The notes beneath the pieces are model-generated. The model was not told where the DNA came from, ran no database searches, and was given only the letters and a program-made list of their open reading frames with translations. A DNA stretch of 64,000 bases from Chitinophagales bacterium (GTDB lineage: Bacteria > Bacteroidota > Bacteroidia > Chitinophagales > BACL12): positions 24,567 through 88,566 of the forward strand of contig JAWKLB010000007.1 in assembly GCA_041392955.1 (NCBI GenBank), read 5' to 3'. Positions within the stretch are counted from its first letter, which is position 1. Each line of letters starts with the position of its first letter. A program made the translations under genes and the position numbers. Of the stretch, positions 48,953-63,769 are shown in pieces.

Positions 48953-50656
48953 CTACCACTGGCGTTTTACCATTTTGCAGGTAGTGACCTTGCCATCGGG
49001 AGATACCACTTCGATCAGATACAATCCGTCTGCAGCGTCGCGCAGATCCATTGTTTCTGTTTCATCTGTCGTTGCCGAGCTGTATATACACTGACCGGTT
49101 GCAGCATACACATGCATGCGCGAGCCTGGCACCATTCCGCTGATGGTGCAAATACCATCATTCGGATCCGGGTAGACAAATACAGAGGATTGTATATGCT
49201 GTGTTATTCCAACGGTGGGTTCTGTATAGGGAATGATATAACTGTGATATACATCCTCTCCGCCATTTAAAGTATTTGCCCAAGCCAGATGTGCACCGGT
49301 ATCATCGGAAACCATATCGAAATAATCGCCCATTTTATTTTGACTTGGATAACCAACATGCGGGTCGAATATGTCGGACAGTTTTTCGTTTGCAGAGAAT
49401 GTTTCGCCGCCATCCATGGAATAGGAATAATACAATGCTGAATTATCTGAACCCGGACTATCGCGTGTGTCTAACCAAACGATATCGATGCGACCATTCG
49501 GTGCGACAGACATCGTGCCGAGCCACTGTACATTTTCATCTGAGGGATCGTCGTTGATGCGTATGGCAGGCTCAAAACTCAAGCCACCGTCGGTGCTGCG
49601 TGCAAACATCACGTCTGCTCCGTCGAAACTGCCATAAGGCTGCACGCTGGCAAGTATATATATATTTCCACCGGTCAAAAAGGTGCCCGACCTGTCGATA
49701 GCAATATTTGTTTGTCCGAATAAGCCTTCCGGATTAACAGAATTCCATCCTGTAATTGTTCCTTGCAGATCAACCGGAACCGGATCGTCCCATACGATAT
49801 CAGATCCTTCTTCCTGTGCGTTGGCAGAGTGCAATAAAATAAAACCGGAATAATCGTCGGAAATACCTGCTATATACAGGTCGCCATGTACATCAACATC
49901 CAAAGTACCGAAATAGGGATCGCCGGGCAAGCCGGTACAATCATCATAGGAAGTATTTTCATCTTCAGAGCGAATAAAAGATCCGGGCAAGCAGGAACTG
50001 TAGGCGAGCGTCCAGAATGCATATATATTACCGTCGCCAACACCGCCACTGCGATCAACGGTCATCCATTGTTTGTCGCCGCCGCCGGCATCGGTGCCGC
50101 TGTTCCAGGAAGCGCCGCCATCATCGGAGGCGAATACTTTGCAGACAAAATCGGGAGTAACAGACAAGCTGTTGTAGTAAAAAGTGCCGTCGGCAGTAAA
50201 ATCCAGCACCGGATCGGAGCGGAAAATACCCTCTTCTATTCTGCCGGGAAAGGTCCAGGTTGTTCCTCCGTCGGTAGTATAACTCCAACCGGCCTGACGG
50301 AAATTGCTCGCAATATTGTCGAACTGTCGCCAGCCGATAACGATCTGATCCGGATTCAGCGGGTTGACCGCGATGCTGGGTTCGTTGCCGGCATCATTTA
50401 GCATATCGTTGCCTTCCGCATCGATGTTCACCTGGTTGGTGTAGATGATGGTTTGTCCTTCACCGCGTTCTGCGGCGTTGGTATAATGATATGCAGGTTG
50501 TGCGAGGTGTTCGGTATTCGGCAAATACGGATCATCTTCTTTTTCTTCGTTCAGTTGCCGCAATGCAGCGCCTGTGACAGGGGTTTGTGCAGGCAGATGC
50601 TGTGCCATACATATGGAAAGGACAAAAGCGGGAAAAAACATTTTTCTACACATCAT
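48953..50656 (-). CDS. BNR/Asp-box repeat (sialidase-fold) protein with a T9SS C-terminal sorting domain
   Basis: There are four Asp-boxes (TTDGGTTW, SDDGGASW, STDGGLSF, SMDGGETF). It has a signal peptide and the Por tail VFVYPDPNDGICTI...DGLYLIEVVSPDGKV. Confidence 0.8.
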   Translation of the reverse strand: MMCRKMFFPAFVLSICMAQHLPAQTPVTGAALRQLNEEKEDDPYLPNTEHLAQPAYHYTNAAERGEGQTIIYTNQVNIDAEGNDMLNDAGNEPSIAVNPLNPDQIVIGWRQFDNIASNFRQAGWSYTTDGGTTWTFPGRIEEGIFRSDPVLDFTADGTFYYNSLSVTPDFVCKVFASDDGGASWNSGTDAGGGDKQWMTVDRSGGVGDGNIYAFWTLAYSSCLPGSFIRSEDENTSYDDCTGLPGDPYFGTLDVDVHGDLYIAGISDDYSGFILLHSANAQEEGSDIVWDDPVPVDLQGTITGWNSVNPEGLFGQTNIAIDRSGTFLTGGNIYILASVQPYGSFDGADVMFARSTDGGLSFEPAIRINDDPSDENVQWLGTMSVAPNGRIDIVWLDTRDSPGSDNSALYYSYSMDGGETFSANEKLSDIFDPHVGYPSQNKMGDYFDMVSDDTGAHLAWANTLNGGEDVYHSYIIPYTEPTVGITQHIQSSVFVYPDPNDGICTISGMVPGSRMHVYAATGQCIYSSATTDETETMDLRDAADGLYLIEVVSPDGKVTTCKMVKRQW

Positions 50657-50665
50657 AAGTATTGT

Positions 50666-51094
50666 TTATTGAGTTGTGCAAGGAATTTTATGTAATGACA
50701 TATCCGGTTCGAAATGCAAAGCATCAGGATGTAAAAAGATGGTTCCTTCGGCATTCATTTCCCCATAACCCTGAGTGATGGTTTCTCCATGTATCAAAAA
50801 GGCAATTTCACGACTGCTTACCATTCCTTCCGACATAAAAGTGTAGGTTGCGATGAGGGTGTCGCCATGCATATGCCCGATAAATTTACCATTATTGGCA
50901 TCTTTTTCCTGCAGAGCAATGTGCAGATCTCCTTCCACCGGATCGCCGGCATGCGTTATTTCCATGGAGATGTTGTTATGCTCGTCGGTATATGCATAAC
51001 AACCGGTATGCAATCCGGAGCCTGCATTTTCTCCGGTTTTTTTGCAGGAAACGGCGGCGCAAAAGGAGGCCATTATAAAAATATATTTCTTCAT
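50666..51094 (-). CDS. Small lipoprotein, function unknown
   Basis: MKKYIFIMASFCAAVSCKK is a lipobox-type signal. The product is 142 aa. Confidence 0.55.
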   Translation of the reverse strand: MKKYIFIMASFCAAVSCKKTGENAGSGLHTGCYAYTDEHNNISMEITHAGDPVEGDLHIALQEKDANNGKFIGHMHGDTLIATYTFMSEGMVSSREIAFLIHGETITQGYGEMNAEGTIFLHPDALHFEPDMSLHKIPCTTQ

Positions 51095-51534
51095 TATTTC
51101 TGTTGATTTTCGGTATTACCCTGCGGGCTGAAACGCATTATCATCACTTCATTCATAAGCAGCTCCAGATTACCGGCGGAATCTATGGCATATCTGTTCA
51201 CGCGCTGCATCATATCCAGGAAAGTTTTTTCCCCTTCACCGCAATACATGAGGGTGCTTGGGCCTGGTTCACCAAAAGAAATGCTGTCGGCATGGAGCGT
51301 AAACGGAGCAGAATATCCGTTGCAACCGGTATTTCCGCTCACCATTCCCGCATCTTTATCAAAAGCGATATAAGGTTTTCTGTCGGGGTAGAGTCCGTCA
51401 AAAGCGATGCGTATTCCGGAAATATACTGCATCTCCCATATTTTGCCGTATACAGGGGGCAGGGTATTTTGTTTTTGCACCGTGCAGGAAGCAACTAAAA
51501 GCAGGCAGAAAGTGACGATATATGAAAAGCGCAT
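51094..51534 (-). CDS. META-domain (HslJ-like) lipoprotein
   Basis: The ATG at 51534 gives MRFSYIVTFCLLLVASC. The META motif is SGNTGCNGYSAPFTL...STLMYC...FLDMMQRVNRYAID..LELL. Confidence 0.75.
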   Translation of the reverse strand: MRFSYIVTFCLLLVASCTVQKQNTLPPVYGKIWEMQYISGIRIAFDGLYPDRKPYIAFDKDAGMVSGNTGCNGYSAPFTLHADSISFGEPGPSTLMYCGEGEKTFLDMMQRVNRYAIDSAGNLELLMNEVMIMRFSPQGNTENQQK

Positions 51535-51825
51535 AAACTCTGTTCTGATGTGGGTGTTAGAAGGGCATTCCAAGGTACAGTATTTTTTGTGGAATAGGTA
51601 ATAAATAACAGTAGCAGGAAGATGTTTGTTCGGGAAGGAGGAAGATGTTCATACATCCTCCTATATACTACATGTAAATCGCAAACGCCCTTTGATGTAG
51701 ATCGTTCAGCATTTCCGCCGATGTTTAGTATAAAAAAGCAGGAAATTTGCGGGCACTACACTTTCAGTGAACATACATCAGGATATGAGCAATAAGCCTT
51801 ATTTTATAATTAATACGCTTGTTTT

Positions 51826-52845
51826 TTATATATATTGTTGTAAGGCGTTTTCCATTTTTTCCATAAATTCTTTCGGCTTGTCTATATGTAGTCCAAGTAT
51901 ATTAAATTTCTTTTTTATTCCATAAAGTCCAATCAATGCATTTTCTTTTTTCAAGTGAATTACCACATTATGACTTTCAAGTGCACCAAGGGGTGAGAGT
52001 GTTCTTGTTAATTTATCTTTTTCCAATGATTTTCTTGAGAGTTCTATTTTTTCTATATCGGCAAAGGGAATGTCGACTTCATTTAAAATTCCATATTTTA
52101 AAGTTAAACTACCGGTGTTTATTGAAACAGGTCTTTTTGAGAGGGATTTAGCAAACCCTAGTACCTGAATTGCGGTATAAACACTTAATGCGGTTAAAAT
52201 CCAGGCGGCAACGTTACTCCAGCGGGCAAGTAAAAAATGGAGGGCAAGTGTTTCCATCCCAATTATCATGATGAACCCGATTAATAGGGCAATTGTTCCG
52301 CTGGTTTTATGATAAGTAAATTCATTGTTTTTAATTTCTCTTGTTTTCCATACTATAAATCCATAATAGAAAACAGCAATTTCTGTAGCAAAAGGCAGTG
52401 CAAGTTTTTCAGGTAGAATATCGCGGCTAATTCTTTTTAAGGTATCATAAAAGTCGGGTGTTGCACTATTTAACGTTTTGTGGTTTTTGATGGCTTTTCG
52501 GATTTTAAATATCACGAAAATCAAAATGGAAAGTTCACATACCGGCAAGATCCAATTTTTACATATATCCAGATAGGTTTGGTTTTCCTTTGGTAAAAAA
52601 TAGGATCCAATGAAGATTCCTATCAGCATTATCGGAATTACCGTCGAGTTCGGGGTTTTTGATGTGCGAATAAGCAGAAAATACAGAAGCGGAACGGTCA
52701 CTAATAGATCCGTAGTAACAGCGAAACTCAAAGTGTCGTTTCCTTTTAGTAATGGAGATTTTATGATACATATCAGGATTGCAAATAGTAAGACAGGAAT
52801 TCCAACATTGGCGAGGTTTCGGTGTAATAGTATTTTTCTATGCAT
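51826..52845 (-). CDS. Multi-pass membrane protein with a C-terminal soluble domain, function unknown
   Basis: The 339-aa ORF is AT-rich, with ~7 hydrophobic helices followed by a ~100-aa hydrophilic tail. Confidence 0.55.
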   Translation of the reverse strand: MHRKILLHRNLANVGIPVLLFAILICIIKSPLLKGNDTLSFAVTTDLLVTVPLLYFLLIRTSKTPNSTVIPIMLIGIFIGSYFLPKENQTYLDICKNWILPVCELSILIFVIFKIRKAIKNHKTLNSATPDFYDTLKRISRDILPEKLALPFATEIAVFYYGFIVWKTREIKNNEFTYHKTSGTIALLIGFIMIIGMETLALHFLLARWSNVAAWILTALSVYTAIQVLGFAKSLSKRPVSINTGSLTLKYGILNEVDIPFADIEKIELSRKSLEKDKLTRTLSPLGALESHNVVIHLKKENALIGLYGIKKKFNILGLHIDKPKEFMEKMENALQQYI

Positions 52846-52862
52846 AGCTTTTGTTTACATTA

Positions 52863-53192
52863 CTAAACATTAATATCGGGATCAAAGTTAGGATTTACTA
52901 CCTCGCCCCTAACACCATTGGTCAGAAAAAATGCACCTGCCAATAATGCGTAATCTTTAAAAATAGCACCGTATAAAATTGAAAAAATTACACTCATAAT
53001 ATATCGGAAAATCCTAAACGTGAAGAATGCATAGGAAAAACCAAATAAAAGTCCCAAGAAAGTCATTATACCAAGCGACCAGTGATATTTGAAACTGAAA
53101 ACTTCATAAATACTTAATGCAGCAGCAAATAATAAGCAGTCTGTGAAAATGATTGCGGTTTTTCTTTTGTAGAAGATATATTTTCTGGCCAT
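52863..53192 (-). CDS. Small membrane protein, function unknown
   Basis: The ATG at 53192 gives MARKYIFYKRK. There are three hydrophobic helices. It stops 17 nt before the next start. Confidence 0.45.
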   Translation of the reverse strand: MARKYIFYKRKTAIIFTDCLLFAAALSIYEVFSFKYHWSLGIMTFLGLLFGFSYAFFTFRIFRYIMSVIFSILYGAIFKDYALLAGAFFLTNGVRGEVVNPNFDPDINV

Positions 53193-53245
53193 TATTTTTA
53201 CTTTATGTCGGTAATTCTTTTTTTGTCGTGTTGTCCTAAAATGTT

Positions 53246-53376
53246 GCCTAACGGTTAATATTTGAAAAGTAGGCGGTTTCGAAGCACTCAACTTTCGATT
53301 AAGCAGAAAGTTTGATACGAGCCAAAAGCTTTAATTTTACAAATGTCTCGCCTATTTTTTATATACATTGTCAGCA
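53246..53376 (-). other. attC-like recombination-site candidate
   Basis: On the minus strand the outer boxes are TGCTGAC ... GTTAGGC. The inner arms are AAAAAATAGGCG / CGCCTACTTTT. It begins 23 nt after the stop of the 53400-53933 ORF. Confidence 0.5.
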
Positions 53377-53399
53377 GCATCCCATTTTATTTTTCTTTG

Positions 53400-53933
53400 T
53401 CATGGGTGAAACGGCAGTTCTTGTTCACATCTATTCCAAAATTCTTCTCCGTCAATGTCGCTAAGGTGGTTTTTGAAAAAGTAAACAGTTTCGTTTTTTA
53501 TCACTGGTTTCGCTTCGTTAAAAGGTTTCCAAAATTCCACGTTTTCCGAGTCAAACATTTTTTCTTTGTCTCTCGAGTAATTGAAAGCATTAAAAATATC
53601 TCTTGGCGGAAAATTGGTTCTGTCAGTAGATGGACTGTTTCCAACGAATTTTGGATAACGTGTCAAGTTTTCAAATTTGTCGTAATAGTCATTATAGTGA
53701 GAGTAACAGACCTGGTCAACGAGAACAGTGAAAAATAGCGCAGTTCCGAAATATGCTTTCCTTTCGTTGTCAAGAAAGTCTAAATAGTCAAAGTCTTTTG
53801 TTAAGGTCTGATATTGTACGGTAAATATTTTTCTGTCGTCAAAAGTATGTTTGCTTCTCTCTGGTATCTTGGAAAAGAACGTCTGAATGTCCTGTCGAAA
53901 CTGGCCGTTGTAATATTTGTCAAATTCATTCAT
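53400..53933 (-). CDS. Hypothetical 177-aa cassette protein
   Basis: It is AT-rich. Its start is 22 nt after a GTTAGCT box. No motif was recognised. Confidence 0.55.
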   Translation of the reverse strand: MNEFDKYYNGQFRQDIQTFFSKIPERSKHTFDDRKIFTVQYQTLTKDFDYLDFLDNERKAYFGTALFFTVLVDQVCYSHYNDYYDKFENLTRYPKFVGNSPSTDRTNFPPRDIFNAFNYSRDKEKMFDSENVEFWKPFNEAKPVIKNETVYFFKNHLSDIDGEEFWNRCEQELPFHP

Positions 53934-53955
53934 TGTTGTCGTTCTTTTTGGTTGC

Positions 53956-54570
53956 AGCTAACGTCAGTTCGTGCAAAGACTAAATTACAAAACAATTTTG
54001 CATTCTATCCCGGCTTATGGCCTGGATGAGAAGATTGATTTTTTAGTTCTCAGCGGGATGCTCCATAGATCGCAATAGTGTAAAAAAGACAAAAAACACC
54101 TCTTTCAGGCGCCTCTTGGAAGCACGTAATACACATGCCTTCGTGCGTCGGGCCGGTAGTAACAAACTCCAATTTTTGCAAAGCAAGGCGATCTACAAAT
54201 TCATCTATGATCCGCACCTGATGATCTTCCGGTATCATTTCCTAAAACGTCACCGGAAAAGCAGAGGTCTGACTTCGATCTATGCCACGTATCGTGCCCA
54301 TAATGGAAAGGTAGTACAAAACATAACACCGAAGTGCTCTTCCAGTATAAAGTTATACAGGGGTTTTGCACAGTCTGACGTTTTTCGGCTTGCCGCAGGG
54401 CTGGTATTGTTGCTGTGTCAGCCTGGCAACTGAAGCCGATTGAAAAACTGATGTTGAGGTTAACAACTAAAAGCCAAATAGAATTCGGCCAAGCCCGATA
54501 TAAGCTGATAGTAGTACAACTAATGATTGTTATGCCGTCCGCCAGCCTTGCGGCAAACCTTTTGTTATGC
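53956..54570 (-). other. attC-like site candidate, interrupted by IS remnant copy 1
   Basis: On the minus strand GCATAAC (54570-54564) begins 8 nt after the stop codon. The arms are TTTGCCGCAAGGCTGG / CCAGCCCTGCGGCAAG. The GTTAGCT box (53962-53956) lies on the far side of the 417-nt insertion. The site proper is long (~198 nt). Confidence 0.5.
53963..54379 (-). mobile_element. Internally deleted IS remnant with terminal inverted repeats (DUF772-type transposase N-terminus only), copy 1
   Basis: The TIRs are GTCAGTTCGTGCAAAG (53963-) and the reverse complement GTCAGACTGTGCAAAA (-54379). The minus strand encodes ...SAFPVTF*EMIPEDHQVRIIDEFVDRLALQKLEF, resembling an IS5/IS1182-type transposase N-terminus, with an in-frame stop and truncation. 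Confidence 0.65.
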
Positions 54571-54578
54571 GTAGCTTT

Positions 54579-55514
54579 TTAGACTGCTATTTTGTTTGTC
54601 TTCAAATACGTTTGCCTTTCTTTATTAAAATCTTTACCAAATTCGCTTCTATCATGGTACTCATTATATAGCGCAGCATTAAATTTGAAAAGATATGATG
54701 AAAGATAACCAATACTATCAATTTGGTTCTTTATGTTAAATGTTGTGTCGATGTTGAAAAGCCCTTTAATAAAATTAGCATTTATTTGCTTTATGTCGAC
54801 GTAGGAAACAGAGTCTTCAATATCTAAAATTGATGATTCGCCATTGTAGTTAAGCGTGTTTCTCAAATTTGAAGGAAACTCGGATTTAAAAATTGAAAAA
54901 TGATTTAGGAATGTTCTGTAAATTGCTGTTTCATCTGCATCGCAAGTTGGTAAAAAATCTCTTAAAGTATTTTCAAGTTGAATCCAATTTAGTTTGTGTA
55001 CACTTTCCCCCTTGAAGCTGAGTGTTAAAACAATATTGCCATTAGCATTTTCCTCTTTAAAGCAAAAATAGTAGTTGCCCGAATCTAAAGATATAGGAGT
55101 TGAATACACGGCAAGTGAAAAATCCTCAAGCCGCTTTTTTTGTCCACTGTTTAAAAAAATAAATCCTTTGCTTAAAAACCTAAAAAAACATGTAGTAGAA
55201 AAGAAAGCTAAATAATACAAAGTGACGAATGACCAACAGGGGGAGTTATTGCTTGATTTTATGAAGTCGCAGTATTGGATTATAGACTTGTTCATAAAAA
55301 GCTCGATGTCACAATGCAAAGCTTTATAATAATCACTTTTACTAATCTCAATTTCTACAGACTTACCAGCCAGCTTATTTAGAGATATTATGTTTTGAGT
55401 AATAATGTCTTTTAATGACCAGAATTGAAACTTATTCCTTTGAACACCATAGTTTACTAAAGGAATTATATGATTGTTTCTTATATCAAGAAAATTGTTT
55501 CCGAATAAGTCCAT
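54579..55514 (-). CDS. Hypothetical 311-aa protein, partner of the DGQHR protein
   Basis: It starts 5 nt after the DGQHR gene stop and shares its strand and AT-rich composition. No motif was recognised. Confidence 0.6.
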   Translation of the reverse strand: MDLFGNNFLDIRNNHIIPLVNYGVQRNKFQFWSLKDIITQNIISLNKLAGKSVEIEISKSDYYKALHCDIELFMNKSIIQYCDFIKSSNNSPCWSFVTLYYLAFFSTTCFFRFLSKGFIFLNSGQKKRLEDFSLAVYSTPISLDSGNYYFCFKEENANGNIVLTLSFKGESVHKLNWIQLENTLRDFLPTCDADETAIYRTFLNHFSIFKSEFPSNLRNTLNYNGESSILDIEDSVSYVDIKQINANFIKGLFNIDTTFNIKNQIDSIGYLSSYLFKFNAALYNEYHDRSEFGKDFNKERQTYLKTNKIAV

Positions 55515-55519
55515 AAGAG

Positions 55520-56515
55520 TTAAAATAAATCTTGACTGTTAAGGTTGTTATATCGTCTCTCGTATTCGTTTAACTCCTTTCTCATGTCAGAAACAACTTT
55601 GCTTAAAGTAGCGTTACTTGTTCCTGTATATGAATCAAAATTTAGTTTTGAAATAGGTTCAAGTACATTTGAGAATGATTCAACTTTTAAATCGCTATAT
55701 TCCTTAAGGGCCTTATCAACAACTTCATGAAAAACTGCAAACAAAGCTCTAAAAAATATTGAATTGGTTAGCTTAGCTTTTTCTGATTTGCTTTTTTTAA
55801 ATACTTTTTCTGCAGCTTCAAGATAATTTTTTACCCCTTTAAAGATTGTTTCATTATCCTTGTCTTGAAAGAAGCCGCTGTCAAAAAGTTCGCTGGTTGA
55901 TTGATTAAATGAAACTCTTGTTATCTTACCTACCTGGCTTTTAGCCGGCGAAAGTAAACCAGCCATTACGCTTTCTTTATTTAAGCGATCGAATAACTGT
56001 CTTTGTCTATCCTCTTTTTTAGTTTCTCTCCCTGAAAGATTTTTTATATCTAATAATAAAGTTGTCGGTACACCTTTTTGAGTAGTGTTAATGTCAATGA
56101 AAAGATTAACCTCTTGAGTCGTATTAAGTTTGTTAAAGATAATTACTGGGATTACATACCTTTTGGTTGATTTTAATAATCCATAAAGTCTATGTTGCCC
56201 ATCAAGTACCATAAAACTATTAGGGTTTGTAACAAAGGATATTTCTCCTTTACTTGGATCAATAGCAAATCTTGCATTGTCTTGGGCACTTAAAATAAGA
56301 GCAGAGGGAATAATACCTTTTAGCTCGTCCAAATAGCGAGCTATATCTTTGGCCCGAGATTCATTTAAAGTCCTCTGAAAGCCTTTCTCAGAATCTTCAT
56401 CTCGTCTCGAAACGAAGCAAACTGATTTAAGTACGTCATTTGGGAGTATTGATACATAAAAGGTTTTGTCATTTTGTGTACACTCTAAAGTTTTAAATCT
56501 TACTGTTTTGCTCAT
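55520..56515 (-). CDS. DGQHR-domain (DndB-like, ParB/Srx superfamily) protein
   Basis: FMVLDGQHRLYGL is an exact DGQHR motif. The upstream KGFQRTLNESRAKDIARYL is ParB/DndB-like, and the downstream FIDINTTQKGV fits the family. Confidence 0.8.
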   Translation of the reverse strand: MSKTVRFKTLECTQNDKTFYVSILPNDVLKSVCFVSRRDEDSEKGFQRTLNESRAKDIARYLDELKGIIPSALILSAQDNARFAIDPSKGEISFVTNPNSFMVLDGQHRLYGLLKSTKRYVIPVIIFNKLNTTQEVNLFIDINTTQKGVPTTLLLDIKNLSGRETKKEDRQRQLFDRLNKESVMAGLLSPAKSQVGKITRVSFNQSTSELFDSGFFQDKDNETIFKGVKNYLEAAEKVFKKSKSEKAKLTNSIFFRALFAVFHEVVDKALKEYSDLKVESFSNVLEPISKLNFDSYTGTSNATLSKVVSDMRKELNEYERRYNNLNSQDLF

Positions 56516-56537
56516 AATGTATGTTTGATTAAGTTAC

Positions 56538-57120
56538 GCACAACGTCAGTTCGTGCAAAAACTAAATTACAAAACAATTTTGCATTCTATTCCGGTATAT
56601 GCCCTGGGTGAGAAGATTGATTTTTTAGTTCTCAGCGGGATACTCTATAGATCGCAATAGTGTAAAAAAGACAAAAAACACCTCTTTCAGACGCTTCAGA
56701 AGCACTTTTGGGCTTAAAATGTTGATGATGCCTCGCAGGCGCCCCATGGAAGCACCTTAATACGCAAGTCTTCGCGTGTTGCGCCGGTTGTAACAAACCC
56801 CAATTTTTGCATCTTCGGTCCATCTACAAATACATCTATGATCCGCACCTGATGATCTTCCGGTATCATTTCTTCAAACGTCACCGGAAAGGCAGAGGTA
56901 TGGCTTTGATCTATGCCATGTGTTGTGCACACAAAGCATTACACCGAAGTGCTCTATCAGAATACAGTTATACAGGGGTTTTTGCACAGTCTGACGGTTT
57001 GCATATTTGCGATGGGCGGGTTCACCAGCCTAATTATTCATGTGGTTTAAAACACATTCCACTACCGTCATACAGTCTGCAAGGTGCATAATCCCGCCTA
57101 TTGCAAATGTGTCGTTAGTG
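56538..57120 (-). other. attC-like site candidate, interrupted by IS remnant copy 2
   Basis: On the minus strand CACTAAC (57120-57114) begins 11 nt after the stop codon. The arms are ATTTGCAATAGGCGGG / CCCGCCCATCGCAAAT. GTTGTGC (56544-56538) lies beyond the insertion. The site proper is ~132 nt. Confidence 0.6.
56545..56995 (-). mobile_element. Internally deleted IS remnant with terminal inverted repeats, copy 2
   Basis: It has the same TIRs as copy 1. The minus strand encodes ...SAFPVTFEEMIPEDHQVRIIDVFVDGPKMQKLGFVTTGATRE. It is a direct repeat of 53963-54379 with visibly high but imperfect identity. Confidence 0.65.
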
Positions 57121-57131
57121 CCAGTGGGCTA

Positions 57132-58031
57132 TTATTCTATAACTACCTTTTTCACATATACTTTGTTGTCTTGCTGAACAGAAATCACATACACACCCGG
57201 AGAGAAGTAACTCATATCAATTACCTCATTGCTCGAGTTGATATTCTTTATTAAAACGGACTCTCCTTGCATATTGAGAATGCTCACCGTTACATTATGT
57301 ACATTTTCAATGTTTATGTAAACATTCTGAGCAAAGGAATACACCTCTGCTTCAAGAGTATTCCCCGAAGCAGGTATACCGCTTATCAATGTCCCGGCCA
57401 GCAATCCGGTTTCAGGTTCTGCGTTATATGCATAATCTTTGATAGTCAACACATCCGCACTATCTGACACAGAACATCTGATCCAGCCGTAATGATAGTT
57501 ATGATCACTGTCTGCAAAGTACACACCCAAGTAATGATCCGAGAAATTGAACCATCCACCGTAATCTGCAATTTGCAACCAATTTCCTGTTGAAAACTGT
57601 AAACTTATAACACCTGCCATTACTTGGGTTCCAAATCCATAAAAATCCAATTCAGGATTAATTAATACAGATTGGGACAAGTAATCTGGCTGATACCAAA
57701 ATGAGCCACTCCACGAATGATATAAAAATCCGCCGGCTATTTTATTCCCCTCTGCAGACGGGCCAGCCCAAATATAATTTCTAAACCTAATTTCAGGAAA
57801 GGATGAAAAATAGGTATAATAAGTATATAGTGCACTTGATTTGAGGAACCCAAAATCATTTATGCCATCATTATCCATATCCACAAGCGCCCCTTCACCA
57901 TTACTGTCTAAAACAATATCGGGATCGATATCAGTATATATCACCTCCGCTTCTGCTTTGTTAGCTATAACTAAAACACTTGCCGCAAAAGCTGCATACT
58001 CTGCCAACCGTATTGTTATATTACTTTGCAC
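57132..58031 (-). CDS. Secreted protein with a T9SS C-terminal sorting domain
   Basis: It has a signal peptide (AAFAASVLVIANKAEA). The Por tail is VSILNMQGESVLIKNI...SPGVYVISVQQDNKVYVKKVVIE. Confidence 0.7.
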   Translation of the reverse strand: MQSNITIRLAEYAAFAASVLVIANKAEAEVIYTDIDPDIVLDSNGEGALVDMDNDGINDFGFLKSSALYTYYTYFSSFPEIRFRNYIWAGPSAEGNKIAGGFLYHSWSGSFWYQPDYLSQSVLINPELDFYGFGTQVMAGVISLQFSTGNWLQIADYGGWFNFSDHYLGVYFADSDHNYHYGWIRCSVSDSADVLTIKDYAYNAEPETGLLAGTLISGIPASGNTLEAEVYSFAQNVYINIENVHNVTVSILNMQGESVLIKNINSSNEVIDMSYFSPGVYVISVQQDNKVYVKKVVIE

Positions 58032-58102
58032 TATTCCGTTAATATACTATGTTCACTATTCGTTAAATTTAAAATTGGATTTACATTCTCTTAAACCATT
58101 GG

Positions 58103-58185
58103 TTATAACGGATGGCAATAAGAAACGTAGAGCATTTTTTCGCCCCTACCTTTCAAGTTACTAAACCTTTTATTAGATGTTATGT
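58103..58185 (-). other. attC-like recombination-site candidate
   Basis: On the minus strand it reads ACATAAC-ATCT-AATAAAAGG ... TTTCTTATT-GCCATCC-GTTATAA, 83 nt in total. It begins 33 nt after the stop of the 58219-58962 ORF. Confidence 0.6.
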
Positions 58186-58218
58186 CATTCAAATTTACCA
58201 CTTTCTGCCCTATGTTTT

Positions 58219-58962
58219 TTATTGCGTGTTGCCCGTAGTAATTTCTTCTCCATACCAGCCTTTATCATTTTCCCTTAATCCCATTTGTTCTCTGAAAAAC
58301 AACAGGAACCTATAAAGTCGATTAACTTCATCTATATTTTTATACTTTTCAAAATTATTGTATTGAAAAAATCGATATTCATATTTTGTCGAAACTTCAA
58401 TGCAAACGGTCATAAAAGTATTTCCATAATCGCGTTCTCCTTTGTTAATTTCGATGTATTCAGGTAAAAATTCTTGAGTAGGCAATGTAGTAATTCCTAA
58501 TTGTTGAATCGAGTCTATCAAAGTTGTCCAACCACATTTTGGCGATACGATTGTGTCATAATGCCGATTAATTTTTTCATACAGTCTGGTTGGATTAAAG
58601 AAATTCAGCATTTTTATGTAGTCAGCAGAAGTCTTGCCTTTAGAATCAGTTTTTAACTCCACAAGTTCAGCGTACTGATTTAAGTTCTCTGGGTATGAAT
58701 ACCAAAATCTAATCATTAAACTATCATAACCATTTTCAGGAGCAGATAGTCCAAGTTGTTCTTGTTTCTGTTTTGTAAATCTGTAATAGGCAAACAAATC
58801 TCCATTCTCGTATCGAGGAATGTCTTTTTTTATTGAATTCTCAGGAATTTTAGGTTTCTTGGATGGTATTCTGATAGGTAACAAACTATTATAACATCCT
58901 GTCAGAATTAATCCTGACAGGATTATTAAAGATATTATTCTAATTTGTTTTATTGCTGTCAT
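58219..58962 (-). CDS. Lipoprotein, function unknown
   Basis: The N-terminus LIILSGLILTGCYN is lipobox-like. The 247-aa ORF is AT-rich. Confidence 0.6.
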   Translation of the reverse strand: MTAIKQIRIISLIILSGLILTGCYNSLLPIRIPSKKPKIPENSIKKDIPRYENGDLFAYYRFTKQKQEQLGLSAPENGYDSLMIRFWYSYPENLNQYAELVELKTDSKGKTSADYIKMLNFFNPTRLYEKINRHYDTIVSPKCGWTTLIDSIQQLGITTLPTQEFLPEYIEINKGERDYGNTFMTVCIEVSTKYEYRFFQYNNFEKYKNIDEVNRLYRFLLFFREQMGLRENDKGWYGEEITTGNTQ

Positions 58963-59021
58963 CGTCTTTTTGTTATTACTGGCAACATACTTATAGCAGC
59001 CATAAAACTACCCCAATCCAC

Positions 59022-59219
59022 CCCTAACTGACACAAATCGGCGTCAAATTGTAAAAATACCATCTGCCAAGCTTATACTTTATGTATAGTAAGTTTTAGG
59101 TTCTCATCCCGAATTTACGCGCTTAAACACTTACCCGCAAATAATCCCGCCCTTCTTGTGACTGGTTCCGGGCAGATTCCCTTTGCCTGGAAATATGGAT
59201 GCTCTCCTCCGTATTTGTG
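59022..59219 (-). other. Weak attC-like candidate
   Basis: On the minus strand GCTACCTGCACAAATACGG pairs with GCCGATTTGTGTCAGTTAGGG (GTTAGGG box at 59028-59022). It is long (~198 nt) and its arms are imperfect. Confidence 0.3.
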
Positions 59220-59250
59220 CAGGTAGCAAAATATACAACACAGTGCCGGA

Positions 59251-59628
59251 TCACATATTTATCACTTCATGGCTGCTGCCCCAGATGATCAGCGATTCAA
59301 AAACAGGGCGCAGCGTTTCGCCATAAGGTGTGAGGGAATATTCCACCTTCGGCGGCACGGTGGGAAACACTTCGCGGTGTATGATCTTGTCTGCCTCCAG
59401 TTCATCGAGGCGCTGTGCGAGCACCTTTTCCGAGAGCCCGGGAATGGCCTTCATCAGCTCGCTGTTCCGCTTGTTGCCTTTGAGCAGCAGGTAGAGGATG
59501 GTGAGCTTATATTTTCCGTTCAGCCGGTGAAAGGCGTTGGTTGCGGGACAGTAGTCGGGGCTGTAGTCTATATCGTCGATCAGGTTGATCTCGAGCGATT
59601 CGCTGCCGTTGTGAAAAATAGTTTTCAT
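59251..59628 (-). CDS. HxlR-family winged-helix transcriptional regulator
   Basis: Only the last 125 aa of the 299-aa track ORF look real: CPATNAFHRLNGKYKLTILYLLLKGNKRNSELMKAIPGLSEKVLAQRLDELEADKIIHREVFPTVPPKVEYSLTPYG. The ATG is at 59628. Confidence 0.8.
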   Translation of the reverse strand: MKTIFHNGSESLEINLIDDIDYSPDYCPATNAFHRLNGKYKLTILYLLLKGNKRNSELMKAIPGLSEKVLAQRLDELEADKIIHREVFPTVPPKVEYSLTPYGETLRPVFESLIIWGSSHEVINM

Positions 59629-59781
59629 TTTTTTAAAAATATTTTTTTGCGGAAAGGGCGGACCTGTAAAAAACTTACTTTTTGGTAAGTGCCTTACCTC
59701 CCGGTTAGCTCTTGTTTTAAACAAATATACACGTATTCTTTGTGCCATTATTTCATAGCACAAACTAAAAATAAGCAAATT

Positions 59782-60198
59782 ATGTCTGACAGTAAACAGT
59801 TGACCATCGCCATTCACGAGGCGTTTTCCAACAATGCATTTGATCAAGTTCTGGCGCTCTGTCACGAAAACGTGGAAGTGCATGCACACGCCTTTGGCGC
59901 CGTTTTTACGGGCAAAGAAGGATTCATGCAATTCATGCAGAGTTTCAAAACGGGCTTTCCCGATGTGCGTATAGCGCATGAACATTTTGTGGTAGAAGGC
60001 GGCAGCGTTGCGGTGCAATTTACCGGCCGCGGAACACATACGGGGACCCTGCAAACACCGGCGGGAGATATTCCTGCAACGGGAAAAAAGGTTGAGCTCC
60101 ATGTTGCGGAATTTCTTGTATGGGAGAACGGCAAGCTGAGAAGTTTGCACAATTACCAGGACGCAGGATCCTTATTGCGGCAGATAGGCGCGATGTGA
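59782..60198 (+). CDS. SnoaL-like / NTF2-fold ester-cyclase-type protein
   Basis: The ATG at 59782 gives MSDSKQLTIAIHEAFSNNAFDQVLALCHENVEVHAH...HVAEFLVWENGKLRSLHNYQD. It is divergent from the HxlR gene, which is a common pairing. Confidence 0.7.
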   Translation: MSDSKQLTIAIHEAFSNNAFDQVLALCHENVEVHAHAFGAVFTGKEGFMQFMQSFKTGFPDVRIAHEHFVVEGGSVAVQFTGRGTHTGTLQTPAGDIPATGKKVELHVAEFLVWENGKLRSLHNYQDAGSLLRQIGAM

Positions 60199-60212
60199 TG
60201 CGCACGGAATTT

Positions 60213-60246
60213 ACCCTGCAATGCAAAGTTGCAGGGTATTTTATTT
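60213..60246 (+). terminator. Hairpin terminator after the SnoaL-like gene
   Basis: The stem ACCCTGCAA (60213-60221) / TTGCAGGGT (60229-60237) is followed by ATTTTATTT. Confidence 0.6.
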
Positions 60247-60273
60247 GGACTGTGTTTTCTTGTTGCGGGATCT

Positions 60274-60642
60274 TTATTTTATCCAACAATCAAATACCGC
60301 ATTTTCTGCAGAATGCATTCCTTTCATTTCAAAGCCCGGGAGGGAAAAAGCAAAGTTGAGCAACGCTTCTTCACCGCTGCAACCCTGCGGAATTTCGATG
60401 CGTTGTGTTTGCGTTTCCATACCCCACCATACATCGCAAAACCAGGGACCTGCATCCGTAGTGCGCACATAGAAGCGCGCAATGGTATGGAGATCTAAGG
60501 TCCTTTTATGTCCGTTCCAATCGGTGGAATACAGGATGTTATTTGTGATCCGGATCTGCCAGCTGCTTTCGGGGAAAAGCGCTCCGGCAGTTTTTGGTTT
60601 TTTAGCCGATCTGTTTTTTATCCATGCAAAGAGACCCATCAT
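60274..60642 (-). CDS. Hypothetical 122-aa cassette protein
   Basis: The start is 16 nt after a GTTATGC box. No motif was recognised. Confidence 0.5.
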   Translation of the reverse strand: MMGLFAWIKNRSAKKPKTAGALFPESSWQIRITNNILYSTDWNGHKRTLDLHTIARFYVRTTDAGPWFCDVWWGMETQTQRIEIPQGCSGEEALLNFAFSLPGFEMKGMHSAENAVFDCWIK

Positions 60643-60658
60643 CTTGATGCCGAATTGA

Positions 60659-60738
60659 GCATAACTACAACTTAAAACAGGTATTTATTTAAATCCGTTC
60701 TCGACATAGGATATTATTCTTCATGGATCGTGGTATGC
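60659..60738 (-). other. attC-like recombination-site candidate
   Basis: On the minus strand GCATACCACGA ... GTTGTAGTTATGC spans 80 nt. It begins 12 nt after the stop of the 60751-61284 ORF. Confidence 0.5.
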
Positions 60739-60750
60739 GCCGGAAACCTT

Positions 60751-61284
60751 TTAAATAGGTGTCTCTTCGGAAAAATCAAGAAGATATACTTTCTTTTTGA
60801 AGGGGGTCCGGAAGGTGATGCTTACGGTATTGCCCCGACTGTCAAATATTGGCTTGCCCGTCAGGTTCACCCGGTCGAGATGCACCAATGTTTGTGAAGC
60901 AGTATCCAGATAACAAAGCGAACGCTGAAAGGATGGCAGTTCAACGCGGATCAAAAATAATGTATCCTGAAAAAGATAAGATATTGGCTGAAAGAATAAG
61001 TCTGCCAGTTCGGGAAGAGGAGGTTCGGTGGATACTATGTTCAGGTATAGTTCATCGAAATCGACCTCGTCCAGGCCATATCTTTCCCGGATGCTATCGC
61101 ATAAGCCCTCGACGTCATGCATGGAGGTTACGGTAAGGGGCAGAGGAAGATCTTTGTAGCGGTTTTCTTTTTTTCTTCCGGCGATTTTCTTCCAGTCCAT
61201 CTGTAATAATATTTTGCCAGGACGTAATTCGTAAGAATGCAGATACAGGGCAATAAGGGGGATAGAAAGGGCGATCACTACCAA
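60751..61284 (-). CDS. Hypothetical membrane-anchored protein, N-terminus uncertain
   Basis: The TM helix is VVIALSIPLIALYL. The track start is a TTG. An ATG ORF upstream (MEQDAPLTFGEKPTDILRFLTPLVYLLAFPFW*) ends in another frame at the T-run CCCTTTTGG, so the N-terminus may be frameshifted. Confidence 0.5.
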   Translation of the reverse strand: MVVIALSIPLIALYLHSYELRPGKILLQMDWKKIAGRKKENRYKDLPLPLTVTSMHDVEGLCDSIRERYGLDEVDFDELYLNIVSTEPPLPELADLFFQPISYLFQDTLFLIRVELPSFQRSLCYLDTASQTLVHLDRVNLTGKPIFDSRGNTVSITFRTPFKKKVYLLDFSEETPI

Positions 61285-61517
61285 AAGGGAAATGCCAACA
61301 GATACACCAAGGGTGTTAAAAAGCGCAATATGTCTGTAGGCTTTTCGCCAAAAGTGAGCGGGGCATCCTGTTCCATGATACGAGGTCGTTGGAAGTAAAC
61401 GTGCAAGTAAAATTAGGGTATCGCGGGCATGGAGTTGTATTCGGATCCCCGGTGGAGATGTTCACTATTGCCCGGATGCCGTGGATAGGAGGGTCAGGAT
61501 GGGGCGGGGTTTTGGTG

Positions 61518-61644
61518 GGATAACAGTTTGTATTTATGTGCTGTCGGTTGTAATAACCTCAGCATGCACATGGAAAATCGTTGTTAAAAAAATGTATTAA
61601 TTATTTGGTTGTCCACTACCGGCGGCACAAACACTTTGTTATTT
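61518..61644 (-). other. attC-like recombination-site candidate
   Basis: On the minus strand it reads AAATAAC-AAAGTGTTTGTGCCGCCGG ... CCGACAGCACATAAATACAAACT-GTTATCC, 127 nt in total. It begins 15 nt after the stop at 61660. Confidence 0.55.
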
Positions 61645-61659
61645 GCCGTGCCATCATGC

Positions 61660-62249
61660 TTAAATTTCTAATAAATTGGCATTGTCATTTAAGTCCGAGC
61701 CTGATTTCGGATCGTAACCGTCCCACAACCCATTTGTTATACCAAACCTTGTCCTTTTTATTCCTTTACTCTCCAAAATATCATCTTTGTCAACCCAACC
61801 GTACTTTTGGTCAAATATTTCCACGAAGATTTGCGACCGGTCCGAAATGATCTTAATTTTTTTCTGTCCCTTTGACAGTTCAAACACAAAATTCCAAACA
61901 CTTTAAAATCGTAATGAGATGAATCTACACTGTAACCGTAGAGCCCGGTGAGAAATTTAAAATGGTTTTCAAAAATGATTTTTAATTCTTGTGTCATTGA
62001 CTTTAGGATATTGCAGAAAGGTTTGCAGATTTGCGATGGGGGGGGTTCGCCACAAATGTTGATTCGGAGCACAAAACTTTCGGCTACCACAAAACTGGCC
62101 GCGAAAACTTTGACCCCGCCTATAGTAAAAGTGCTGTTAAGTACAGCGCTTATCATGGTGCCGTAAAGGTTCAAAATAAAAAAGAAGTCAAACATTTTTG
62201 TCAATAACCCTTCCACAATCGCCCTATAATCTTCTATTTGAGTATCCAA
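61660..62249 (-). pseudogene. Hypothetical cassette ORF, apparently frameshifted near 61887
   Basis: Two overlapping minus-strand ORFs lie in different frames (61758-62249 and 61660-61887). The tail of the first is R/K-rich junk, while the second reads protein-like (FELSKGQKKIKIISDRSQIFVEIFDQKYGWVDKDD). Confidence 0.4.
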
Positions 62250-62496
62250 AATGTTTAAGGTCGCTCTTTGATGGATAAGGTCACACCGTAATTTGTAGTA
62301 GTGTCCAATTTTTTTTAAGAATAGGATTGCTAATCTTGATGTGAGTTTTCACTTCATTTTCTACTCTAGTCCGATTTTCTGCAATAGTTTGAATTTTGTC
62401 GCTCCAATACTCGTTTCATTTACAGGAATTCTTTGCAACGCTATTTCTAATGTGCTGTCTAAAATTAATAAAAATATTCTGTTTTTCTGAGGGAAA

Positions 62497-62604
62497 GATT
62501 AGCAGAAAATTAAATCTGCAAGCAAGAATGCTGTCAAGCAGTCCGCCAGCCCATGGCTTTTGAACAATTTTTAGCTGCATTTAGTTGGTTAATTTCTGTT
62601 GCAA
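62497..62604 (-). other. attC-like candidate with a degenerate 3' box
   Basis: On the minus strand TTGCAAC abuts the GHKL stop codon. The arms are AGAAATTAA / TTAATTTTCT. The inner pairing is AATGC...GCATT around GGCTGGCGGAC, the same core motif as the 54.5-kb site. The 3' box GCTAATC lacks the GTT. Confidence 0.4.
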
Positions 62605-63726
62605 TCATGTTTTACTGGAGGTGATGTCGGAAGATAGTTTTGGAATACTTGCAATTGTTTCCAGGGTTTCACTAATAATGTGTCCTGTATTGAATGGAAA
62701 TACTTCGTCATCCCATTTTCCCTGTAGGCCCCTAGAAATTTGAGCATACCTTTTTGTAGCATCAATTATGCTTTGTCTTATGGCTTGAAAAACCGGATGT
62801 TTTAAATTAATTCCTGATTTGCTACTATCCCAAGGCATATCGCGAGATTGCCCACGTAGTTTTACAATGGTACGAGTAAGAGAAATATTATAGTGTGGAT
62901 TGCCAATCATTCCTGACGAAAAACCAACCGAAAAATCGGTTAGGGCTCTTCCAATTAACCTATTATTACAATAAAGAAAAACTCCGTAAGAATTGTCTGG
63001 GTCACCAGGATGGTCTATTAGTCCTGAAATAATTTCAACATCTACGAATCTATCTTCAGCGGGAATTTTAGCGGAGAATTGTATTGGAAAAAGGTTGGGC
63101 GGATATGACCATTCATTTTCAAAACTTCGTGCATTTAATTTATCGGTGTTCACTATTATAGAAGTCCCTCTTTCGATAAACATTGAATATATTTCTGAAA
63201 GATGATTTTTTAATTCAATAAGAGCTGGTTCATCAAGCCTGATCCTTAGCCTGGTTAATTCAATTAAAGTTGTTGAAGGATTTAACTTGATTTTTGATTC
63301 GCTATAAGGCAACTTCCAACTTCCTCCGTCTGTAATCCAGGTGTCGTCAAATTTTATGGTAAATGATTTGTCATTTTGGTATCTTGAATGAATTGAAATG
63401 TCCTGCGCCAAGGCGACAACGGCTCTTTTACTGCCAACACCGAAATATCCAATCACATCATCTGAAATATCATTTGTCGTTTTACCCGGACTCACAATGT
63501 GGTCGAGTTTTTGTTCTTCAATCCCACCAGCGTTGTCCATAATGGAAATAGTTTGCTGCTGAATGTCTGCTTTAATTATTATTTCAAGGTCACGTTTTTT
63601 TGTCTTGGACCAAAGGTCGATGGCATTGTCAATAAGTTCGCACACTGACCTTTTTAAGTCATACTCAGAGATAATTGAAAGAAAAATTCGTTTTTCTGGT
63701 GTCGCGTCTAATACTTTGTCCGCCAT
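62605..63726 (-). CDS. GHKL-superfamily ATPase (HATPase_c_3 / MORC-like type)
   Basis: The N-box is CELIDNAIDLW, G1 is MDNAGGI and G2 is GYFGVGSKRA. The 373-aa protein has no recognisable kinase or topoisomerase partner domain. Confidence 0.8.
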   Translation of the reverse strand: MADKVLDATPEKRIFLSIISEYDLKRSVCELIDNAIDLWSKTKKRDLEIIIKADIQQQTISIMDNAGGIEEQKLDHIVSPGKTTNDISDDVIGYFGVGSKRAVVALAQDISIHSRYQNDKSFTIKFDDTWITDGGSWKLPYSESKIKLNPSTTLIELTRLRIRLDEPALIELKNHLSEIYSMFIERGTSIIVNTDKLNARSFENEWSYPPNLFPIQFSAKIPAEDRFVDVEIISGLIDHPGDPDNSYGVFLYCNNRLIGRALTDFSVGFSSGMIGNPHYNISLTRTIVKLRGQSRDMPWDSSKSGINLKHPVFQAIRQSIIDATKRYAQISRGLQGKWDDEVFPFNTGHIISETLETIASIPKLSSDITSSKT

Positions 63727-63769
63727 GTTATTAGTTTTTGATGAGTAATTGGTCCAATGTTAACGTTGC

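Follow-up and report, generated by a model that had tools for sequence, protein, structure and literature searches.

An IS1182-family lineage with non-autonomous relics that probably homes to one nucleotide of attC-like sites in Bacteroidota

We analysed a window of 64,000 nucleotides from a Chitinophagales bacterium (GenBank assembly GCA_041392955.1, contig JAWKLB010000007.1, positions 24,567 to 88,566 of the forward strand), in which two short, internally deleted insertion sequences (IS), copy 1 and copy 2, each interrupt a different attC-like site of a cassette array. Our results make it very likely that these copies belong to an IS1182-family lineage, with non-autonomous relics, that homes to a single nucleotide position (C|GTT) of Bacteroidota attC-like sites. 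An earlier note on this DNA had proposed site-specific targeting of the attC core by an element resembling a miniature inverted-repeat transposable element (MITE), and this proposal is now supported by the finding of the same junction across 70 sites.

Copy 1 (53963..54379, 417 bp) and copy 2 (56545..56995, 451 bp) both lie on the minus strand and are collinear direct repeats, whose mean column identity in a pairwise alignment is 86%, with one 48-bp and one 16-bp indel. A repeat finder returned them as three collinear blocks of 84-94% identity, and the boundaries given in the earlier note proved to be exact. The homology between the copies stops at the element ends: beyond them, the only bases shared in the alignment are AAC to the left and a single G to the right. 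Thus, the flanks are not homologous to each other, in agreement with the earlier note, and the copies are not part of a larger segmental duplication. Each copy is bounded by imperfect terminal inverted repeats (TIRs) of 18 bp. The repeat with the lower coordinates is GTCAGTTCGTGCAAA(G/A)AC, and the one with the higher coordinates is GTCAGACTGTGCAAAA(C/A)C in reverse complement. No sequence of the window other than the two copies fully matches a GTCAGTTCGTGCAAA start combined with a reverse-complemented GTCAGACTGTGCAAA end. In copy 1, the left inverted repeat, proximal to the transposase (IRL, GTCAGACTGTGCAAAACC, 54362..54379, minus strand), adjoins the L'-side spacer ...GCCGAAAAAC, and the right inverted repeat (IRR, ...GTCTTTGCACGAACTGAC, 53963..53980, minus strand) adjoins the R' box GTTAGCT. 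In copy 2, the IRL (GTCAGACTGTGCAAAAAC, 56978..56995, minus strand) adjoins ...ATATGCAAACC and the IRR (GTTTTTGCACGAACTGAC, 56545..56562, minus strand) adjoins the R' box GTTGTGC.

We then searched for relatives of these copies. BLAST of both copies against the source assembly (3.13 Mb, 54 contigs, 79% complete) revealed no third copy, and the assembled part of the genome contained no full-length parent IS; the relatives were found in other genomes. Three genomes of the same genus carry 30-nt end matches to copy 2. In one of these same-genus genomes, G007, both ends lie 1667 bp apart (L013:4995-6661, contig G007:C1), and this element is a full-length relative. The G007 IS and the window copies have identical ends, GTCAG(ACT/TTC)GTGCAAA, which are conserved across the clade. 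The G007 transposase, read through one in-frame TGA, scores 361 bits on the NCBIfam model NF033551 of the IS1182 family (cut-off 270), and it carries the Pfam domains DUF772 (aa 55-123) and DDE_Tnp_1_6. Both window copies, which are collinear with the two ends of this IS, align to its first ~270 nt and its last ~190 nt. The family assignment of the copies (IS5 superfamily, IS1182 family) is therefore made by sequence homology, through this full-length relative.

What is left of the transposase in each copy amounts to ~65 N-terminal and 25-40 C-terminal codons, in line with the internally deleted IS retaining about 60-70 residues that had been described before. Because the DDE region, and with it the catalytic core, has been deleted in both, the copies are non-autonomous. 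The N-terminal remnant of copy 1 (54105..54301, minus strand; ~aa 1-65) reads MGTIRGIDRSQTSAFPVTF*EMIPEDHQVRIIDEFVDR.., the in-frame stop that had been noticed earlier being a TAG at 54242-54244, and it is 78% identical to the peptide of copy 2. The remnant of copy 2 (56714..56938, minus strand; ..SAFPVTFEEMIPEDHQVRIIDVFVDG..KLGFVTTGATRE..) reads ..HGIDQSHTSAFPVTFEEMIPEDHQVRIIDVFVDGPKMQKLGFVTTGATRE.., has lost its start codon with the 16-bp deletion, and shows 56% aa identity to the N-terminus of the G007 transposase. Nothing closer to the N-terminal peptide than this G007 element was present in 400 genomes of the order, and no metagenome contig matched a degenerate back-translated pattern of MIPEDHQVRIID. 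The transposase had also been called DUF772-type. This holds for the full-length relative; a Pfam search of three remnant peptide fragments returned no domain, including DUF772, because the retained N-terminal peptide lies almost wholly upstream of that domain.

Since the two collinear copies have an identical deletion junction, a single deletion derivative is their common ancestor, and it has moved one or more times since then. They are short, TIR-bounded and devoid of a functional open reading frame (ORF), and they share one common deletion, all of which are MITE-like features. We thus interpret the copies as non-autonomous relics that stand midway between an IS and a MITE.

Next, we reconstructed the target sites by removing the elements in silico. 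As had been proposed, an attC-like site was restored from both flank pairs. Site 1, of 198 nt (54570-54380 joined to 53962-53956), reads GCATAAC-AAAAGG-TTTGCCGCAAGGCTGG...CCAGCCCTGCGGCAA-GCCGAAAAAC|GTTAGCT. Its 5' part (54380..54570, minus strand) comprises R'' GCATAAC (54564-54570), L'' TTTGCCGCAAGGCTGG, a long variable loop, L' CCAGCCCTGCGGCAA and the spacer GCCGAAAAAC, and is separated by copy 1 from the R' box GTTAGCT (53956..53962, minus strand). Site 2, of 132 nt (57120-56996 joined to 56544-56538), reads CACTAAC-GACA-CATTTGCAATAGGCGGG...CCCGCCCATCGCAAATATG-CAAACC|GTTGTGC. Here, the 5' part (56996..57120, minus strand) comprises R'' CACTAAC (57114-57120), L'' CATTTGCAATAGGCGGG, a loop, L' CCCGCCCATCGCAAATATG and the spacer CAAACC, and copy 2 separates it from the R' box GTTGTGC (56538..56544, minus strand). 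In both sites the insertion point is ...C|GTT, at the 5' edge of the R' box, and the elements have the same orientation. The earlier observation that the element sits immediately 5' of the GTT core, at an equivalent position and orientation in two different sites, is thus borne out.

The restored sites have the layout of attC: pairing R'' and R' boxes, imperfect L'' and L' repeats with bulges, spacers and a variable loop. The R' boxes GTTAGCT and GTTGTGC deviate from the strict GTTRRRY consensus. Both sites start 9-11 nt past a stop codon, and the next ORF begins 30 nt beyond the element. In folds with RNA parameters, R'' pairs with R' and L'' with L', and bulged bases are present. Since a naive scan of the window for AAC...GTT duplexes was too noisy, it was replaced by junction-anchored arm-pairing scores compared with background. 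By this measure, both sites fall in the lowest 0-2% of CGTT controls, with no background site as low as site 1, and in the lowest 0.05-2% of random positions (0.05% for site 1). With DNA parameters, the bottom strand of site 2 (56538-57120) folds with z = -2.94 (1/200 shuffles as good) and the top strand with z = -0.6, an asymmetry that one would expect of a site whose bottom strand is the one that folds and recombines. The centroid fold of site 1 retains a 14-bp L stem. A search of 50000-64000 against Rfam gave no match, and Rfam holds no relevant family.

Two further observations define the limits of the element. At 63770-63901, a site of this class that is not interrupted (...GCCGCAAAAC GTTAGGTGCAAC) has a spacer of equal length, so the restored sites miss no bases. 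In addition, the 177-aa cassette ORF that lies 30 nt downstream of copy 1 (53400..53933, minus strand) has a homologue in G007 (44% identity, E = 4e-52), which occupies a different array position and is preceded by ...AATAT GTTAGCGGGC, with no IS. From this IS-free example it follows that GTTAGC is part of the cassette boundary rather than of the element.

We then asked where the relatives of these copies are inserted. For this, we pooled 70 genomic and metagenomic sites, some of them sampled through the element end and others, independently, through the transposase protein. All L'-side flanks (61/61) have C at position -1, and all 49 R'-side flanks have GTT at positions +1 to +3, with A at +4 in 40 of them. 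The R' side is conserved to +11, as GTTA(G/T)SnGCAA, and many L' arms fit the pattern AATCCGCCACnnCGCAAAGCCGnAAAC. L'-arm pairing is enriched, with 13/33 flanks in the lowest 5% of background (p = 3e-9), by a measure that under-scores short textbook sites such as L120. The full-length G007 element sits at ...CCCGCACGAACGCAAAGCGCCAAAAC|IS|GTTAGCCGCAACC, with R'' GCTAAC 135 nt upstream, which is an attC-like junction. The other same-genus junctions read ...CTGCC|GTTAGCTGCAACC in G011, ...CCCCGCCATCGCAAATCTGCAAAAC|GTCAG in G017:C9 and ...CACAACCACGGC|GTCAG in G017:C305, the last lying upstream of a hydrolase gene and being not obviously attC-like.

The sites came from three independent samplings, of which the same-genus genomes above were the first. 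An exact scan for the element end over 185,579 species genomes returned 80 loci, about half of them chance matches in other phyla; the Bacteroidota matches all run on into IS sequence, and their outer flanks end in ..AC, ..CC or ..GC. Both ends lie within the available sequence for 20 elements, including the two window copies and that of G007. Five further distinct sites, three with a clear attC arm, came from a metagenome scan. The protein-based sample consisted of 29 loci from the 400 genomes of the order (40-54% aa identity), chosen only by transposase similarity, and both their junction and their end structure, GTCAGnnTGTG(A/C/T)AAAAAC, were as in the other elements. A co-oriented ORF lies 110-250 nt upstream in 12/13 cases and 26-120 nt downstream in 16/17, a spacing that is the geometry of a cassette junction. 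The further copies therefore do not lie in unrelated contexts but overwhelmingly at the same attC-like position; that every copy would sit in an attC-like site is true of most, and a few lie at C|GTT with no obvious hairpin arm. As a separate observation, locus L134, from another genome, carries two internally deleted derivatives of ~0.5 kb (883-about 1480 and 2838-3353) that have kept the transposase N-terminus, each at C|GTTAG of a different attC-like site, mirroring the window.

At neither window copy did we find an unambiguous target-site duplication, in agreement with the earlier note. CGT is present at both junctions, hence an alternative reading is available in which the element runs CAG...CTG and is flanked by an NCGT duplication; the flanking N bases match in 21/32 elements, compared with about 46% expected by chance. 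The terminus adjacent to R' tends to be CTGCC or CTCCC, and not CTGAC, whether it is IRL or IRR (for example L018, L025, L034 and L035 versus L022 and L027). This suggests that the target or repair determines one or two of the terminal bases. Note that two loci of the same metagenome-assembled genome, L094 and L095, have near-identical flanks, one junction carrying an extra GTC (..GCTAAAC|GTCAG versus ..GCTAAACGTC|GTCAG).

Regarding orientation, the transposase is in the sense of the cassettes in the clade of the window (G007, G016, L059 and two metagenome elements) and in two other clades. In contrast, a sister clade with GTGAAAAAAC ends comprises 10 antisense and 4 sense insertions, and within it near-identical transposases are found in opposite orientations (L027 versus L031, L019 versus L021). 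Two probable antisense cases, L073 and L075, occur among about 28 elements with the window-type end. When orientation was mapped on the tree, 5 changes were required versus 9.8 in shuffles, and 0/500 shuffles were as low. The insertion position is therefore a property of the whole clade, and the orientation bias a property of sub-lineages. The fixed orientation that had been proposed stands for the sub-lineage of the window, which inserts in sense, and does not extend to the sister clade.

Taken together, these results point to the following scenario. A transposase acting in trans would have mobilised, on one or more occasions, a deletion derivative that kept both TIRs. At every landing the derivative would have entered an attC-like site at its 3' end, where the spacer C meets the GTT of the R' box. 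In recognising the attC end, the transposase would read a short core, (A/C)C|GTTA, together with the adjoining arm or hairpin. This mode of recognition would be in line with the habit of IS1272, which inserts at stem-loops with no target duplication (PMC5678879). Since R' is split from L', the insertion should disable the site for the array recombinase and weld the neighbouring cassettes together. Both window copies are presumably inert now, unless a full-length element resides in the unassembled 20% of the genome.

Several observations weigh against homing to attC-like sites. No canonical integron integrase was found in the source genome or in the others checked, and the source genome has two copies only, with no full-length partner in its assembly. 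The junction is ambiguous by up to 4 nt, and an identical empty site follows from the CAG...CTG reading with its NCGT duplication. Over its full length, site 1 folds no better than shuffles (z about -0.9); this is because its loop is long, and arm pairing alone is informative there. Finally, a few relatives lie at C|GTT with no recognisable hairpin arm or outside an array (L065, L069, L186, L187, G017:C305 and L031).

These last cases, together with an invariant core, the palindromic nature of AAC|GTT and the insertion of one clade in both orientations, could be accommodated by a transposase that reads only a short, partly palindromic core, (A/C)C|GTT(A), with insertions accumulating in arrays because they are harmless there. 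Indeed, short-sequence recognition does contribute, because some copies with no obvious hairpin arm (L065, L069, L187 and G017:C305) still lie at C|GTT. Several copies that lack such an arm also retain C|GTTA. Yet the motif [AC]CGTT[AG] occurs 3918 times in the source genome, so the core alone cannot account for the preference for attC-like sites, and both insertions in this genome are in such sites. Moreover, most L'-side flanks elsewhere carry a conserved L' arm (AATCCGCCACnnCGCAAAGCCGnAAAC) or a paired arm, and the R' flank that is conserved to +11 is the cassette boundary itself. We therefore regard reading of the core alone as unlikely.

Alternatively, the recombinase of the array, rather than the transposase, could be responsible: a circularised element with abutted ends (CTGAC|GTCAG) would be integrated by the array tyrosine recombinase at G|TT, much as a pseudo-cassette. 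Since the element starts with G, the junction can also be written ...CG|TCAG...GACG|TT..., which is exactly the integron crossover point, and both the lack of a clear target-site duplication and the strong orientation bias in the sub-lineage of the window would be compatible with this route. Polar site-specific recombination is nevertheless hard to reconcile with close relatives in opposite orientations, such as L027 and L031 or L019 and L021. The elements carry a complete DDE transposase, their ends have no R'' or L'' boxes, some copies lie outside arrays, and a family member, IS1272, also generates no target-site duplication in an integron-free host. We consider this route very improbable. 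Least probable of all, to the point of being negligible, is that the repeats are not mobile elements at all but a segmental duplication or part of the attC or cassette structure. The two copies are only 2.6 kb apart in one array, which would suit such an origin; against it stand the TIRs and transposase remnants inside the copies and the existence of homologous cassette boundaries with no element. The unrelated flanks and the full-length relatives with identical ends refute it.

Homing of an IS1182-family lineage to attC-like sites thus remains our preferred reading, and we next characterised the array in which it has occurred. From about 51.8 kb to 63.7 kb of the window all ORFs are on the minus strand, most of them with no Pfam hit, and sorting domains of the type IX secretion system (T9SS) are present, which mark the host as a member of the Bacteroidota. 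The G+C content is 0.35-0.39 across the cassettes around the copies (52000-58000), versus 0.44-0.46 in the neighbouring DNA. The attC-like site that carries copy 2 belongs to the cassette ORF at 57132..58031 (minus strand), which encodes a protein with a T9SS tail. Between the two copies lies a two-gene cassette (54579..56515, minus strand), composed of a gene for a 331-aa DndB-like protein (55520-56515) and a 311-aa ORF (54579-55514), which the two element copies bracket exactly, in the manner of a composite transposon. The copies, being in the same orientation, may form with this cassette a composite unit that a transposase could mobilise, and the R'-proximal end might drive the downstream cassette; we consider both ideas unlikely. 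If the composite were real, cassettes would gain a second, recombinase-independent way out of and into arrays.

No protein in the source genome reaches the integron-integrase cut-off (TIGR02249, 265 bits), no above-cut-off integron integrase was found in five other host genomes, and no IntI with the IntI-specific additional domain lies by the array. The sites are therefore termed attC-like, and not proven attC, because neither the source genome nor the others checked has a canonical IntI. The best candidate recombinase for the array is a 373-aa IntI-like tyrosine recombinase at the end of another contig of the source genome (C14:60895-61996). It scores 234 bits on TIGR02249, which is below the cut-off but above its own XerC/D scores, and it lacks model positions 181-237, the location of the IntI-specific domain. 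Downstream of it, the sequence ...AAACAA GTTATCGG is followed by the start of an ORF in the same orientation. In G007, a C-terminal recombinase remnant (L013:3389-3556, G007:C1) lies directly upstream of the array and is co-oriented with the cassettes; a second remnant is at G007:C1:50496-50621, and a full recombinase copy elsewhere in that genome is followed by ...AATTA GTTATGTGC.

The right end of the window revealed a second IS1182-family element (63902-64000, continuing to about C52:90203), which encodes a 519-aa transposase scoring 298 bits on NF033551. It shares <=26% identity with the first lineage, has the TIRs GTTGCACAACTCC / GGAGTTGTGCAAC, and has its insertion point on the 5' (R'') side of the attC-like site at 63770-63901. 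Thus, two IS1182 lineages may hit opposite ends of attC-like sites.

To our knowledge, the only mobile elements with published attC homing are the IS1111-type IS and the group IIC introns, and our full-text literature searches found no description of an IS1182 element or a MITE targeting attC. If our reading is correct, a DDE clade of the IS1182 family, acting at the opposite end of the site, would represent a third, independent solution to attC homing. Many Bacteroidota families contain members of this clade, which also includes miniature derivatives. The clade would mark Bacteroidota cassette arrays, whose recombinase is devoid of the IntI hallmark domain, as having long been targeted by parasitic elements, and would offer a simple genomic marker for locating such arrays. 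In addition, each insertion, by splitting R' from L', should freeze cassette boundaries, and the lineage would provide a tractable system for studying how a DDE transposase reads a hairpin-forming site.

The closest published parallel is the IS1111-attC group of the IS110/IS1111 family (ISPa21, ISPst6 and ISKpn4; Tetu & Holmes 2008; Post & Hall 2009), as it is cited in PMC3001079 and PMC11187229. As presented in these citing papers, and as occurs with the lineage described here, an IS lineage occupies one fixed position inside attC and interrupts the site. The earlier note had drawn an analogy with this group and with group IIC introns, while pointing to a different transposase family. The family difference is upheld; a second difference is the place of insertion, which in both published groups lies near the 5' end of attC, with the element antisense to the cassettes (PMC3001079). 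The transposase of IS1111 elements is of the DEDD type and works with a seekRNA (PMC11187229), whereas the window lineage has a DDE transposase of the IS1182 type, inserts at the 3' end and, in its sub-lineage, does so in sense, which places it outside the IS1111-attC group. Its host arrays are also different, being those of Bacteroidota that have no canonical IntI. Group IIC-attC introns (e.g. S.ma.I2; PMC3001079) resemble the window lineage in being a monophyletic subset that homes to attC through recognition of a hairpin plus a short motif; they differ in being retroelements, with a ribozyme and a reverse transcriptase, that enter the bottom strand near the 5' end in antisense.

Within the IS1182 family, new insertions of IS1272 of Staphylococcus target inverted-repeat stem-loops and generate no target-site duplication (PMC5678879). 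IS1272 and IS1182 of Staphylococcus have a transposase of the same family as the window lineage, and this behaviour would fit a preference for hairpins that extends across the family. Small hairpins of diverse kinds are reported to be replaced by IS1272, whereas the window lineage replaces nothing and uses one class of site and one nucleotide within it. As for the deleted copies themselves, they share with bacterial MITEs, and with the MITE-bracketed integrons known as integron mobilization units, the short, TIR-bounded, non-coding structure that depends on a transposase in trans, and here too two direct copies bracket one cassette. In contrast to bacterial MITEs, they measure 417-451 bp, have recognisable transposase ends, number only two and are 14% diverged. 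Finally, with respect to the target rather than the element, the host array resembles the rAID-1 arrays of Bacteroidales, which consist of co-oriented small genes, integron-like repetitive intergenic sequences and an XerD-like or IntI-like tyrosine recombinase in the same orientation (bioRxiv 10.1101/471110). The arrays targeted by this IS1182-family lineage thus resemble these recombinase-associated Bacteroidales arrays more than they do classical integrons.

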